The translations under genes were made by a program, and so were the position numbers. This document shows positions 3,733 through 12,716 of a stretch of DNA of 44,893 bases, piece after piece. How positions within the stretch are numbered: the first letter of the stretch is position 1; each line of letters begins with the position of its first letter. The DNA comes from a virus. Taxonomy: Duplodnaviria; Caudoviricetes. The notes under the pieces were generated by a model. It did no database searches and was not told the origin of the DNA. It saw only the letters and a list, made by a program, of their open reading frames with translations. The stretch is taken from IMG/VR virus record IMGVR_UViG_3300022183_000013, positions 1-44,893 of that record, one strand, 5' to 3'.

Positions 3733-3937
3733 TCCCAAACGGGCTCCCAAATGGCCAAAACCGGCCATCGCGGCAATCCCAAAATGTTAGTGAATTCAAT
3801 GGCTGGGGAACCTGGATTCGAACCAGGACCGACGGAGTCAGAGTCCGTTGAAGACCCTTGATTTATCATGCCTTTTTCCCCAAACGCTGCTTTTCGAGCA
3901 CTATACATATCAATACCTTACCCGTTTGCTCCCAAAC
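3733..3937. promoter_or_regulatory. Putative integrase arm-type sites and IHF site around attP
   Basis: (T/C)CCCAAA(C/T/A) at 3733, 3745, 3777, 3878 and 3930; perfect IHF consensus TATCAATACCTTA at 3908-3920. Confidence 0.6.
3800..3850 (-). other. attP: attP core: 3' half of tRNA-Gln(CTG)
   Basis: Minus strand CAACGGACT-CTG-ACTCCGTCGGTCCTGGTTCGAATCCAGGTTCCCCAGCCA gives anticodon arm, T-arm and acceptor 3' end with CCA; no canonical D-arm; directly downstream of the integrase. Confidence 0.9.
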
Positions 3938-4958: not shown

Positions 4959-5173
4959 TTTTCAGTCGCCAAAAGGAATTGATCCAGCGCTTGATCCGGG
5001 TTGGTTTCCACGTCCATCGCGACGCCGTCGCTGGCGTCATCGGTGGTGAGCACTTCCATTGTGCCTTCAGCGAAACCGAACCTCAGCCGCCGGATAGGAA
5101 CGCCGGCAGCAGTGACCGCGCCTAGTGTGCGCTTGATGTCGTCGACTGTGAAGGCTGCCGCGCGCCTGGCCAT
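4955..5173 (-). CDS. Probable excisionase / recombination directionality factor
   Basis: 72 aa, overlaps the int start (ATGA); MARRAAAFTVDDIKR N-terminus typical of small genes upstream of alphaproteobacterial phage integrases. Confidence 0.6.
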   Translation of the reverse strand: MARRAAAFTVDDIKRTLGAVTAAGVPIRRLRFGFAEGTMEVLTTDDASDGVAMDVETNPDQALDQFLLATEK

Positions 5174-5187
5174 GGTCTCTATCCCTC

Positions 5188-5289
5188 CCTACGTTCACCG
5201 GCCAATTTGACGGCCTCCGCACCCGCCGCGTCGTCGGCAAAGCGAACATGATACCTACGTTCACCGGCCAATTTGACGGCCTCCGCACC
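5188..5289 (-). CRISPR. Mini CRISPR-like array B: two identical 36-nt repeats, one 30-nt spacer
   Basis: Repeat (minus strand) GGTGCGGAGGCCGTCAAATTGGCCGGTGAACGTAGG at 5188-5223 and 5254-5289; spacer 5224-5253; internal GGCC...GGCC hairpin. Confidence 0.8.
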
Positions 5290-5383
5290 TGATGAAGAGC
5301 AACCGATTGATTGGCCAAAGCGATTTCGCTTCGCGGCTGGAGAATTCCTCCTCCAGCCGGTCCGCGCGGCCCCGCATGGGCCG
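5290..5383 (-). promoter_or_regulatory. Leader/structured region of array B
   Basis: Perfect IHF consensus AATCAATCGGTTG (5300-5312, minus) 10 nt from the first repeat; hairpins at 5318-5331, 5334-5359 and 5367-5383. Confidence 0.55.
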
Positions 5384-5399
5384 TAATTTTCTGCGTTGA

Positions 5400-5597
5400 T
5401 CACGCCGCCAGAGCCGGTTTCTGTGCCTCGACGGCAGGGCGATTGAGCGCCTGATGGAGCGCGACTTCTTCCGCTTTCACGGCGGCAAACCCAGCCCGCG
5501 CGGCGGCGTCCGCGTGCTCGGACGAAATCTGATCGGCCAGGCACCGCTTGCGGACTTCGGCCATATCGTTGCATACGTCTTTGAGATGTTCGTTCAT
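5400..5597 (-). CDS. Small hypothetical protein between the TnpB-like gene and array B
   Basis: 65 aa, ATG overlaps the stop of the TnpB-like gene (ATGA), ends in AA. Confidence 0.65.
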   Translation of the reverse strand: MNEHLKDVCNDMAEVRKRCLADQISSEHADAAARAGFAAVKAEEVALHQALNRPAVEAQKPALAA

Positions 5598-6982
5598 GCT
5601 GCTTTCCTTCTCTTTTTGATGGCGCGACGTGCGCTCTTTACTTCCGCCACGGCGGCGGAAATCTCTTTGCCGATGGCGGCGCGCGGCGCTTCATCCGTTG
5701 TGGATCGAAACGCAATGCCCGCTTCATTGGCCTTGTATTCGAGAAACTGAATTGCTGTACCGGGGGCTTGTTCCAGGATCGCGCGATTAACCATGGCCAC
5801 GGTTCGAACGGCGTTCCCGTGGTTTTGCTTGTCACCCTTCGCGGACTTGGTTGTTGTCTTGATGGCAGGAGCGATCAAAGTGATGTCGCCAGCGCCCTTC
5901 AATAACCCGCTTGTCCATTGATGGAGGGACTCGCGACGGATGCGTGCGGCTTTGCCGCTGGCGAGTTGCGCTCGTCTTGTCCACTCTTTCCACCGCCGCG
6001 ACCCGCGTTTGAAGCGGGTGTCGCGTTCGGATTTGATCCGGTCAGCCTTTACCGTGAGGCGGGCGGCAGCTGCCATTTGACCGACTTCAACGCCCACATT
6101 GGCGGGCGGCGGCGTTCCTGTCCCCCTGTCGTCACCGGCTATTTGACCGGCCTCAACACCCTGCTCGGCCACGAGCCGGTACCACTTCACCCTGTCGTCA
6201 CCGGCTATTTGACCGGCCTCAACACCAGATGTTGAATAAGCCGTTGAAGTAGGCTGGTGATTCGCGACTTCCGTCATTGGAAAACGCGGGGGGGACATCC
6301 CCCCATTCCGCTCAACGCGAGCGAATTCGTCGATTAGGTTCATGTGAACGGTAAGGTCATCCGAGCCGGAAACGCGCCGGGCGGGCAGTTTCACCACGGC
6401 GGATAACCACCATGCGCCCTCGCGCCACAATACCTCACATGACCGGATTTGCTCGGGCTCGGTTGGGTCGATTGGAAACCGACCACGCACCTTTACTTCG
6501 CCTATGCCGAAAAACTTAGCGCGCCAGAGCTTCCCGGCCTTGTGCATCTTCCACCCACGATCACGGAACGGTATGGACGGGTGCCGGTCAGGATGACGGA
6601 ATCTCGGGTGCCCCGCTTCGGCGAAACTCTTGCCCTCTTTCAGGCGCCGGAAGAAAGCGGCATACGCCAAGTCGACGGCCTTGATGGCAAGTGCGGCGGT
6701 TGCTGCGGACAGATCCTGAAATTCTGGGCACTCGGAACGGAGCGTTTTGACCTCTTTGGACTGATCGTAAAACGATAGCGATTTGCCGCGCCGTCGGTAG
6801 CACTCCTCGCGTTGCTGAATGGCCGCGTTCCAAATATCACCGCACAAACGCCGCTGAACATGCATCGCGTGGGCCTGGGCCTTGTTCGGGTACATTTTGA
6901 AGGTGTACCGCCGCGCGAACAATTGTTGCGAGGCTGACGGATGATTCGCTATTGTCGTTTCCGAGGAGCGAAGATCGGTCAT
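5594..6982 (-). CDS. TnpB/Cas12-family RNA-guided DNA-binding protein, predicted nuclease-dead, with an in-frame CRISPR-like insertion
   Basis: TnpB motifs RRYTFKMYPNKAQ, IWNAAIQQR, VDLAYAAFFRR..GHPRFR, WWLSAVV, RRESLHQWT, KSAKG...NRAILEQ..G..IQFLEYKA. RuvC-I reads LTVHMNL (no Asp), RuvC-II reads LIAPAI (no Glu), and the Zn ribbon and RuvC-III are missing. RBS GGGAGAG before ATG 6982. Confidence 0.85.
   Translation of the reverse strand: MTDLRSSETTIANHPSASQQLFARRYTFKMYPNKAQAHAMHVQRRLCGDIWNAAIQQREECYRRRGKSLSFYDQSKEVKTLRSECPEFQDLSAATAALAIKAVDLAYAAFFRRLKEGKSFAEAGHPRFRHPDRHPSIPFRDRGWKMHKAGKLWRAKFFGIGEVKVRGRFPIDPTEPEQIRSCEVLWREGAWWLSAVVKLPARRVSGSDDLTVHMNLIDEFARVERNGGMSPPRFPMTEVANHQPTSTAYSTSGVEAGQIAGDDRVKWYRLVAEQGVEAGQIAGDDRGTGTPPPANVGVEVGQMAAAARLTVKADRIKSERDTRFKRGSRRWKEWTRRAQLASGKAARIRRESLHQWTSGLLKGAGDITLIAPAIKTTTKSAKGDKQNHGNAVRTVAMVNRAILEQAPGTAIQFLEYKANEAGIAFRSTTDEAPRAAIGKEISAAVAEVKSARRAIKKRRKAA
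6059..6226 (-). CRISPR. CRISPR-like array A inside the TnpB-like ORF: two identical plus one degenerate 36-nt repeats, two 30-nt spacers
   Basis: Repeat (minus strand) GGTGTTGAGGCCGGTCAAATAGCCGGTGACGACAGG at 6191-6226 and 6125-6160; degenerate copy at 6059-6094 on the same 66-nt period; spacers at 6161-6190 and 6095-6124. Confidence 0.8.
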
Positions 6983-7136
6983 CACCGCTCTCCCGCCTCT
7001 GGTGACCAATCCCGCAATCGCACGGTCGACTTTCTCAACACCCAGATTGATTTAGCCGGGCATACTCCAGCCGCGCCTGCTCCGGCGACGACGGGGGTCA
7101 CGATTTTACAAACAAGCACGCCGCCAAAATCAGCCA

Positions 7137-7556
7137 TCACCGTTCTCCCGTCTCTGGTGTCTCGGATAGGGCGGTCATGCTTCGACTTCCCAAAGAAGTT
7201 TTTGCCCGAGAGGGTGCGTATCCACGCGCGGACGAGATTGAACCGACCAACTGCGCCCCGGTGCCCGTCGGCCAGCCCTCTGGTATGGGTGTCTCGGATA
7301 GGGCGGCGTCGATCATGAGACGGTAGGCGACTCTGTGCATAATGCGCTCCCCCTCATGGGCCGGTGCGGCGGCTCCCAACATCGCATCCGTCGGCTCTCG
7401 CATGGCCTTGATCATGGCGCGGGCGTGCGGGACGTAGCTTTGCCAATAATCATCGATTGGCGTGCTTGGCGTGCAATCGGAAACGCAAATCGCCCTCGCC
7501 ACGCGCTCCACCATCTCCGGGGTAGGGGTAGGGGTAGGGGTGCGGCGGGTGGTCAT
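7137..7556 (-). CDS. Phage hypothetical protein
   Basis: EMVERVARAIC...ARAMIKAMREPTDAML...MIDAAL, a common small phage family; ATG 7556 overlaps the upstream stop. Confidence 0.7.
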   Translation of the reverse strand: MTTRRTPTPTPTPEMVERVARAICVSDCTPSTPIDDYWQSYVPHARAMIKAMREPTDAMLGAAAPAHEGERIMHRVAYRLMIDAALSETPIPEGWPTGTGAQLVGSISSARGYAPSRAKTSLGSRSMTALSETPETGER

Positions 7557-12041: not shown

Positions 12042-12716
12042 TTAGGCGGCTTTGTCGGATTGCTCGGAGGCGACTGGCGCGGGCTGTTTTTCGAGCCAAT
12101 CGAGCGCGGACCCGACGGTCGACTTAACGTCCTCGGGGCCGTCGTAATCGTCGGAAAGCCAGTGTTCGCGGGCGTGCTCAACCGGGAAGCACCGGCATCC
12201 CGCATAGACAATCCACTCGCCGTCTTCGGCGCGGGCGATCCACGAATAGCCGCGCGGGTCGCTAACCGGCAGTTTCTTGATTGAATGCTGACCGATCAGG
12301 TCGGCCTCGCTTAGGCCGGCACCGCGCAAATCGGCCTCGCGCAGGTCGGCACCGCGCAAATCGGCGCCGCGCAGGCTGGCGCCGCGCATGTCGGAGCCGC
12401 GCAGGCTGGCATCGATCAGTTCGGCACCGTTCAGGCTGGCGCCGCGCAGGAAAGCACCGTGCAGGTCGGCATCGATCAGACAAGCACCGCGCAGGTCGAC
12501 ACCGTTCAGGTCGACACCGCGCAGACCGGCCTCGCTTAGGTCGACACCGCGCAGGTCGCAACCGCGCAGGTCGCCACCGTTCAGGTCGCCACCGTTGGCG
12601 AGCCCCCACTTAACCGCCAAGCCAATCTTGACCGAGCGAAGCGCATTTTCATCACAATCGATTTCAGCGGTGAATTGGACGTTGCCTGTCCAGCGGTTTT
12701 TGATCTCGAATTTCAC
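12042..12716 (-). CDS. Pentapeptide-repeat protein
   Basis: MKFEIKNRWTG N-terminus, a long run of (A/G)(D/S)L(R/S)G pentapeptides, C-terminal AGCRCF...AREHW domain. Confidence 0.92.
   Translation of the reverse strand: MKFEIKNRWTGNVQFTAEIDCDENALRSVKIGLAVKWGLANGGDLNGGDLRGCDLRGVDLSEAGLRGVDLNGVDLRGACLIDADLHGAFLRGASLNGAELIDASLRGSDMRGASLRGADLRGADLREADLRGAGLSEADLIGQHSIKKLPVSDPRGYSWIARAEDGEWIVYAGCRCFPVEHAREHWLSDDYDGPEDVKSTVGSALDWLEKQPAPVASEQSDKAA

Follow-up and report, generated by a model that had tools for sequence, protein, structure and literature searches.

For TnpB and its omegaRNA, a guide scaffold overlapping the coding sequence and a pseudoknot directly before the guide have been described (PMC10097598, PMC10278001). 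In the TnpB of ISDra2, this pseudoknot involves the bases -6 to -2 before the guide (PMC10097598). The same fold and, as predictions, a scaffold overlapping the coding sequence and such a pseudoknot are found in a module of the IMG/VR virus record IMGVR_UViG_3300022183_000013, a linear record that spans 44,893 bases and encodes terminase, portal and integrase, which was analysed over its full length (the window in the following; locus L002 is identical to it). Here, the effector gene contains a CRISPR array in frame within its own coding sequence. In contrast to TnpB, the nuclease triad is missing, the scaffold lies in the middle of the gene and not at its 3' end, and the guide would come from an acquired spacer and not from the DNA beside a transposon end.

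TldR proteins share with this effector the TnpB fold, a decayed RuvC domain, the loss of the zinc finger, carriage by prophages, an omegaRNA-like guide and an expected binding activity, which is a prediction in our case (PMC10705468). However, TldR guides are located downstream of the gene and target conserved promoters (PMC10705468), whereas here the guide lies inside the open reading frame (ORF), belongs to a CRISPR array with spacer turnover and is accompanied by a conserved partner gene; the spacers also vary between sister phages, which does not fit a conserved promoter as target. Cas12m of type V-M is likewise a non-cutting type V effector on mobile elements, with hairpin repeats and no adaptation genes, but it has about 600 amino acids, a REC roof and a zinc finger and uses a short CRISPR RNA (crRNA) without trans-activating crRNA from an external array (PMC11013384). 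In contrast, the effector described here has about 380–400 amino acids without its insert, ranks closer to TnpB, and has a predicted anti-repeat and pseudoknot partner outside the repeat. Also the type V-U2 effector C2c8 is a small TnpB-like CRISPR effector; its NCBIfam profile (NF038192) matches weakly, with 31.6 bits, far under the cut-off of 350, and the TnpB profile NF040570 is matched with 101.5 bits, narrowly above the cut-off of 100.

Two further groups of systems have to be considered. In TIGR-Tas, an in-frame guide array is present in disordered loops of the effector gene product; dead effectors repress transcription, a link to translation has been proposed and the route of acquisition is given as unknown (bioRxiv 10.64898/2026.09.09.750476). 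The general idea is thus not without precedent, and an initial annotation of this DNA, which knew of no described effector with a guide array inside its own ORF, has to be corrected on this point. TIGR-Tas differs in being an unrelated Nop-domain protein with a dual-spacer RNA, as compared to the TnpB fold and the leader with host II-C geometry found here. Viral mini-arrays and single guides are phage-borne as well, contain one or two spacers and rely on host CRISPR proteins (PMC11656645; 10.64898/2026.06.01.729453); they use a host effector and host-identical repeats, whereas here the phage has an effector of its own, and scaffold and repeat covary.

The module can be counted as a variant among the RNA-guided TnpB/type V systems that is neither V-M, V-U2, TIGR-Tas nor TldR as defined, and the in-frame array system is real and widespread. 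In the literature searched, which included few subscription journals, no in-frame CRISPR array in a TnpB or Cas12 gene was found, although the supplements of PMC10691335 and PMC12669027 may list the clade among V-U variants; the accessible parts of these two papers and of PMC11013384, PMC11656645, PMC10705468, 10.64898/2026.06.01.729453 and 10.64898/2026.03.27.714800 contain no such array.

The initial annotation, made from the sequence alone, had described two identical repeats, a decayed third copy and an exact 66-nucleotide (nt) period, and a recount returned the same copies with periods of 66 and 66 (Table 1). It had also read the ORF through the array without a stop, and the minus-strand translation yields the peptides it gave. 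As proposed there, the insert follows the RuvC-I strand, in which the catalytic Asp is replaced by His213, and long helices come next. The near-identical repeats and the unique spacers of fixed length characterize a true CRISPR-type array within a TnpB-like ORF that is probably nuclease-dead, and its polarity is canonical: the decayed repeat is distal and turnover occurs at the leader end, as seen between the window and L003/L004 and between L035 and L036. A degenerate pattern of the repeat occurs four times in the window compared to zero times in 100 shuffles, and two of these four copies form a second, related mini-array. The ORF finder had set the start of the effector at a TTG at 7009, upstream of the likely ATG.

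The 66-nt period had been taken as a sign that the frame is kept. A unit of 66 nt is the ordinary one of host II-C arrays, therefore the period itself needs no special explanation; what stands is the selection for frame, to which units of the 60-, 72- and 75-nt classes and the lack of stop codons point. After six irregular units had been dropped, all 59 intragenic repeat-spacer units were divisible by three, compared to 15 of 35 extragenic ones, and without the 66-nt class the numbers were 22/22 and 9/29 (Fisher p 1.7e-7). The 59 intragenic spacers contain no stop in the reading frame, compared to 12–16 of 59 with a stop in each of the other frames. Between the window and L004, 25 of 36 and 14 of 23 changes in the two flanks of the array fall on third positions, which indicates purifying selection. 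A conservation of the repeat at the level of protein, named by the initial annotation as the contrary observation, was not seen: the repeat copies are conserved as DNA at all three codon positions (identities of 0.94, 0.95 and 0.92) and the spacers between them are unrelated. Spacer 1 is only 33% identical to its L004 counterpart and spacer 2 87%; the leader-proximal spacer was replaced and the distal one kept. Judged from these comparisons, the array is under reading-frame constraint and its spacers turn over at the leader end. All four differences of spacer 2 from its counterpart in L003/L004 lie within nine bases beside the repeat (6116–6124).

One protein search gave 14 matches, 10 of them in the effector family, and three scans gave 68 loci including duplicates; the family size obtained in this way is a lower bound. 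Both anchors flanking the insert site were found in 55 of the 68 loci, and in 54 of these 55 they lie in a single ORF. An insert of 72–606 nt is present in 32 loci, always in frame; 22 loci have a loop of 51–69 nt at the site, one of them being an ordinary TnpB. L019 contains a 65-nt remnant out of frame, and several relatives retain array remnants only. The arrays of the inserts have 36-nt repeats with periods of 66, 72, 75 and once 57, and L030 has a period of 60. As the initial annotation had suggested to check, the protein length of the relatives changes at this site by whole units, for example between L035 and L036 and among L026–L029. L065 and L021 carry arrays at a second in-frame site in the N-terminal half, where L026, L028 and L009 retain remnants. 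Among the insert-free loci, L025, L033, L048, L049 and L060 harbor external arrays, whose periods are 60–76. A tree was built from 39 rows after deletion of the insert columns and without P0001 and P0011; its root is given by four distant TnpBs, two of them of unusual composition. The eight rows that lack the insert group in a single nested clade (95/95), and this suggests that the insert is ancestral within the sampled family.

Some of these loci have further peculiarities. L065 carries two different arrays in frame within one gene (1699–1907 and 2226–2393), and in L016 (4759–4854) and L030 (2881–2971) neighbouring spacers are diverged duplicates of about 86% identity. L012 contains, downstream of the gene (5397–5846), several short cassettes in tandem whose repeats measure 29 nt, together with recurring scaffold-like segments. 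The insert-free loci L041–L056 comprise many near-identical contigs in which the effector is split in its N-terminal half by a stop or a frameshift.

The AlphaFold model of the effector (450 amino acids, 41-row alignment) reached a mean predicted local distance difference test (pLDDT) value of 82. Here, the insert (model residues 224–285) appears as a low-confidence loop with pLDDT <50, as had been expected beforehand. The best Foldseek matches are the TnpB structures 8h1j, 8exa and 8iaz. Catalytic columns were compared with those of four ordinary TnpBs with an intact site. Across the family, the RuvC-I Asp column is variable, the RuvC-II Glu is kept in no row and mostly replaced by Ile or Val, the RuvC-III column is variable and the zinc finger is absent. 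On this alignment, loss of nuclease activity is likely, yet unproven, since an acidic motif just past RuvC-I is conserved. Atlas searches with the effector returned generic TnpB clusters, and a single-protein scan of viral contigs returned no relative.

What had been called the leader of the array is mostly a predicted guide scaffold and not solely an acquisition leader. Most of it is predicted to form an omegaRNA-like structure that covaries with the repeat. Three hairpins are predicted upstream of repeat 1 (z -3.2), and the duplicated downstream cassette of L059, a near-exact copy of its intragenic scaffold, starts at the same point as the first of them. A search rule for an A-led five-base loop, defined without using the repeat, finds such a loop in 21 of 23 cassettes, and in 18 of these 21 the four bases at its end would fully pair with the repeat bases -6 to -3. 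Altogether 73 of 84 cells are paired compared to 56 after shuffling (p 2e-5), although this test is not blind because the pattern was first seen by eye in the same cassettes. The three misses look one base out of register in the seeds.

The anti-repeat helix is paired in 73% of 168 cells compared to 61% after shuffling, with 22 double changes, in an alignment with two misaligned rows, and RNAalifold selected this helix unaided. It competes with the hairpin of the repeat itself, which covaries too. Since a control duplex between leader positions -24..-2 and the 3' half of the repeat likewise favoured cognate pairs (p 0.0008), the duplex test alone is weak and the column-wise counts carry the anti-repeat claim. 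Alternatively, the helix could be a leader-repeat hairpin of the kind known to block extra crRNAs (PMC13187072), but this leaves the pseudoknot unexplained. Rfam contains no match for the cassette.

The phage (G000) has no Cas1, and it is likely that host Cas1-Cas2 adds the spacers in trans, as judged from the leader geometry. In 14 of 21 cassettes the best box resembling the site of integration host factor (IHF), scored against the IHF consensus, ends 10–12 nt before repeat 1. For comparison, 29 alphaproteobacterial II-C cas1 loci were used (30 minus L077), 23 of which showed arrays. The period is 66 in nearly all of these arrays, with mostly 36-nt repeats, and in 12 of the 23 leaders the best IHF-like box ends 9–11 nt before the first repeat. 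Arrays with 29-nt repeats and a period of 61, which we take to resemble type I-E, become arrays of period 60 inside genes. In type I systems IHF directs integration at the leader (10.1101/2023.05.26.542337), and II-C arrays acquire spacers at their downstream end (PMC12080349). The II-C geometry would be used here in the reverse sense, with the newest spacer directly behind the scaffold and repeat 1. Neither G004 nor the 23 II-C arrays of other species contain a repeat identical to that of the cassette.

Regarding the origin of the spacers, one of the 97 spacers searched in the fetched loci has a perfect match outside any array. Spacer 1 of L059 equals the replication-initiator gene of its own phage over 30/30 positions (L059 5563–5592 and 7877–7906). 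Spacer 1 of the window matches Sel1-repeat genes with two mismatches; of 401 alphaproteobacterial genomes one contains this match, in which the reading frame is preserved, and contigs of the runs X11 and X15 contain its sequence between non-repeat flanks. Since Sel1 repeats are a common family, this match shows an origin and not a target. These two matches, both in coding sequence and not in a conserved promoter, indicate that the two spacers are of foreign origin. The two other spacers of the window have no match; searches with the window spacers gave no match in viral contigs and weak partial matches in phages and plasmids (E 0.05 or worse). Apart from the replication gene, the spacers of L059 and L066 match only themselves, and most spacers of the related loci are unmatched. 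One L065 spacer, the first of its array, matches the other repeat in the same gene over 18–19 nt, and one L029 spacer reappears at the second intragenic site.

Taken together, we consider it probable, at roughly 65%, that the effector binds DNA under RNA guidance but does not cut it, that it uses a natural single guide, and that it is reprogrammed by host adaptation and filtered by translation. Here, RNA of the mRNA strand would fold as scaffold, first repeat and first spacer into a natural single guide with a TnpB-type pseudoknot. The Cas1-Cas2 of a host type II-C system, or of other types for other lineages, would together with IHF insert each new spacer at the first repeat, so that the newest spacer would become the guide linked to the scaffold. 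Any acquisition with a frameshift or a stop would destroy the effector and be lost, and surviving ones would lengthen the disordered loop between RuvC-I and the next helices. The complex may then bind DNA that matches its guide and thus act against competing phages or host genes, whose transcription or replication it would block. Additional cassettes, located downstream in the window and, in relatives, upstream or at the second in-frame site, would each provide a further scaffold-linked guide. A bolder version of this scheme is put forward tentatively, with slightly less than even odds: in this phage family an omegaRNA has been joined to a CRISPR leader of the host type, which lets host Cas1-Cas2 rewrite the single guide of a TnpB that does not cut, and the acquisitions, filtered by the ribosome, become part of an effector protein that acts with a dedicated small subunit, the scaffold being adapted to the geometry with which several host CRISPR types acquire spacers.

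If true, the module would represent a living intermediate on the way from TnpB to Cas12. The transition between a fixed omegaRNA and an adaptive array could be tested in it directly, and spacer acquisition would be under protein-coding selection, with a measurable filter for frame and stops. A non-cutting core of this small size with a predicted single guide is a candidate for a compact DNA-binding tool, and the insertion-tolerant loop would be a natural fusion site. Furthermore, arrays in ORFs are likely dismissed as protein repeats during annotation, hence more such systems may have been missed.

Several observations speak against this scheme. Among five carrier metagenome-assembled genomes, Cas1 was found in one, and the repeats there are unrelated to the cassette. 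The only perfect protospacer sits in the carrier phage itself, and the three spacers of the window have no exact target in the viral contigs, phages, plasmids and genomes searched. In L003/L004 the effector has an in-frame TAG 57 residues before its end (equivalent to window 5768–5770), and yet these loci differ in their spacers. In 16 further cassettes, mostly of other repeat classes, the loop rule, with the pairing position left free, finds a fully paired loop in six, an unpaired one in one and no loop in nine. The wobble pairs of the anti-repeat helix (27 vs. 15, p 0.09) do not fix the strand, and a terminator-like site on the opposite strand (5366–5384) ends the downstream cassette. In the effector, Asp/Asn and Asp are conserved two and five residues past the lost RuvC-I Asp. 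Finally, the p values given above overstate independence because the loci are related and the helix windows were chosen after viewing the data.

The intragenic position could also serve a negative feedback, in which maturation of the guide cuts the mRNA and thereby limits synthesis of effector and partner. The scaffold and the array lie on the mRNA strand, no sigma-70-like promoter was detected in 5000–7300, the insert appears ancestral and was retained in the sampled family, and an active TnpB cuts the guide out of the mRNA that encodes it (PMC10278001). However, this self-processing needs an intact RuvC (PMC10278001), which is lost here, eight relatives have no insert, five of them with an external array, and external copies of the cassette occur in the same module. 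We regard such a feedback as unlikely, with perhaps one chance in four; it can be compatible with the RNA-guided binder and act on top of it.

A less favourable view is that of a semi-selfish passenger, a cassette that gains spacers by mimicking a host leader while the effector is weakly needed. The module is present or absent between sister phages and occurs in different contexts, a self-matching spacer is tolerated, several relatives keep array remnants alone, and the premature stop of L003/L004 occurs with the same base changes in the runs X15, X17 and X20. This TAG may be either a nonsense allele or subject to read-through; the sequence 3' of it is still conserved. A passenger would not explain the strong filtering of spacers for frame and stops, the third-position bias in both flanks, the covariation of scaffold and repeat across proteins of 30–45% identity or the conserved partner gene, which makes it improbable.

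More doubtful still is a reading on the opposite strand, where spacer, repeat, anti-repeat and hairpins would form a single guide or decoy for host Cas9, the TnpB-like gene being incidental. As II-C arrays gain spacers downstream, the orientation used by hosts would be the antisense one in this case (PMC12080349), single guides for Cas9 are known from phages (10.64898/2026.06.01.729453), and the terminator-like site mentioned above lies on that strand. On the contrary, of the 38 cassettes 12 have GNRA loops on the mRNA strand and 0 on the opposite one, the folding energy is lower on the mRNA strand in 28 of 38, and wobble pairs favour the mRNA strand both in the repeat hairpin (40 vs. 7) and in the pseudoknot (5 vs. 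0). In addition, the same scaffold logic is present with the 29-nt, 61-period repeats, which are not II-C-like, and none of the 23 host II-C repeats equals a cassette repeat.

Only a slim chance is left for an active nuclease with a rearranged catalytic site. The acidic residues past RuvC-I would provide it, and such sites are common in TnpB (PMC10691335), but no family row retains the RuvC-II Glu, a zinc finger is missing, the RuvC-III position varies and the spacer that matches a replication gene of its own phage over 30/30 positions is maintained. A reading of the array as an ordinary protein tandem repeat would be favoured by the six changes that separate repeats 1 and 2 of the window from those of L004, five of which lie at third codon positions. 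It is practically ruled out by the equal identity of the repeat copies across codon positions, by inter-repeat segments that are unrelated and replaced as blocks, by cassettes outside ORFs and by spacers that match foreign genes.

The second cassette downstream, the 65-amino-acid partner gene and the movement of the 1.8-kb module between phages had not been noticed in the initial annotation. Within the first 12 kb of the window, 5168–6995 alone is shared with L004, at 93%. The runs X15 and X17 show the same module ends in another context, X17 with a single downstream repeat, and a contig of run X11 joins 5186 to 6994. The module ends were thus mapped, and the neighbouring genes scanned contain no transposase. 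RNA runs X19 and X20 contain parts of the sister module as contigs without strand or ends, which were not counted as evidence for expression.

For the partner protein, no match in Pfam or PHROG and no usable match in the Atlas was obtained. Of 30 loci examined, 26 have a small protein akin to it directly after the effector; BLAST linked 25 of these, and the window contributes its own. A complex prediction for the partner with the C-terminal part of the effector gave 0.23 (mark 0.32) and was counted neither for nor against binding.

Table 1. Position of the module and its elements in the window (IHF, integration host factor)
Feature	Position	Strand	Remark
Whole module	5168..6995	-	present in other phage contexts; absent from sister phage
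Effector gene	5594..6982	-	462 amino acids from likely ATG; TnpB fold without zinc finger; substitutions at RuvC-I Asp and RuvC-II Glu
Scaffold hairpin 1	6307..6325	-	predicted; overlaps codons just after RuvC-I
Scaffold hairpin 2	6288..6304	-	predicted; loop 6294-6298 predicted to pair with repeat bases -6 to -3 (pseudoknot)
Scaffold hairpin 3	6263..6287	-	predicted
Anti-repeat	6252..6260	-	predicted pairing with 3' half of repeat
IHF-like box	6237..6249	-	7/9 consensus positions; ends 10 nt before repeat 1
Repeat 1	6191..6226	-	36 nt; forms hairpin, z -3.5
Spacer 1 (newest)	6161..6190	-	matches Sel1-repeat genes, 2 mismatches, same reading frame
Repeat 2	6125..6160	-	36/36 identical to repeat 1
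Spacer 2 (older)	6095..6124	-	26/30 common to L003/L004; no target found
Degenerate terminal repeat	6059..6094	-	26/36 match
Partner gene	5400..5597	-	65 amino acids, conserved; overlaps effector stop
Second scaffold	5290..5385	-	predicted pseudoknot hairpin 5367-5383 (loop 5373-5377), more hairpins, anti-repeat, IHF-like box 5300-5312 (9/9)
Second mini-array	5188..5289	-	repeats 5254-5289 and 5188-5223; spacer 5224-5253; outside any conserved ORF

A 131-amino-acid ORF running through the second array (5179–5574) has no family match and was not taken as a gene. The last downstream repeat adjoins the ribosome-binding region of a small gene before the integrase (5173–5223), which has no family match and presumably encodes an excisionase; due to this position, RNA processing there could affect the integration genes. 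Beside the integrase, a tRNA-like sequence (3800–3882) is probably the attachment site; it is called as tRNA-Leu by ARAGORN, with a weak Rfam score. Outside the module, a 15-nt tandem repeat of about 19 copies (12297–12588) lies in an ORF of 224 amino acids and is pentapeptide-repeat-like.

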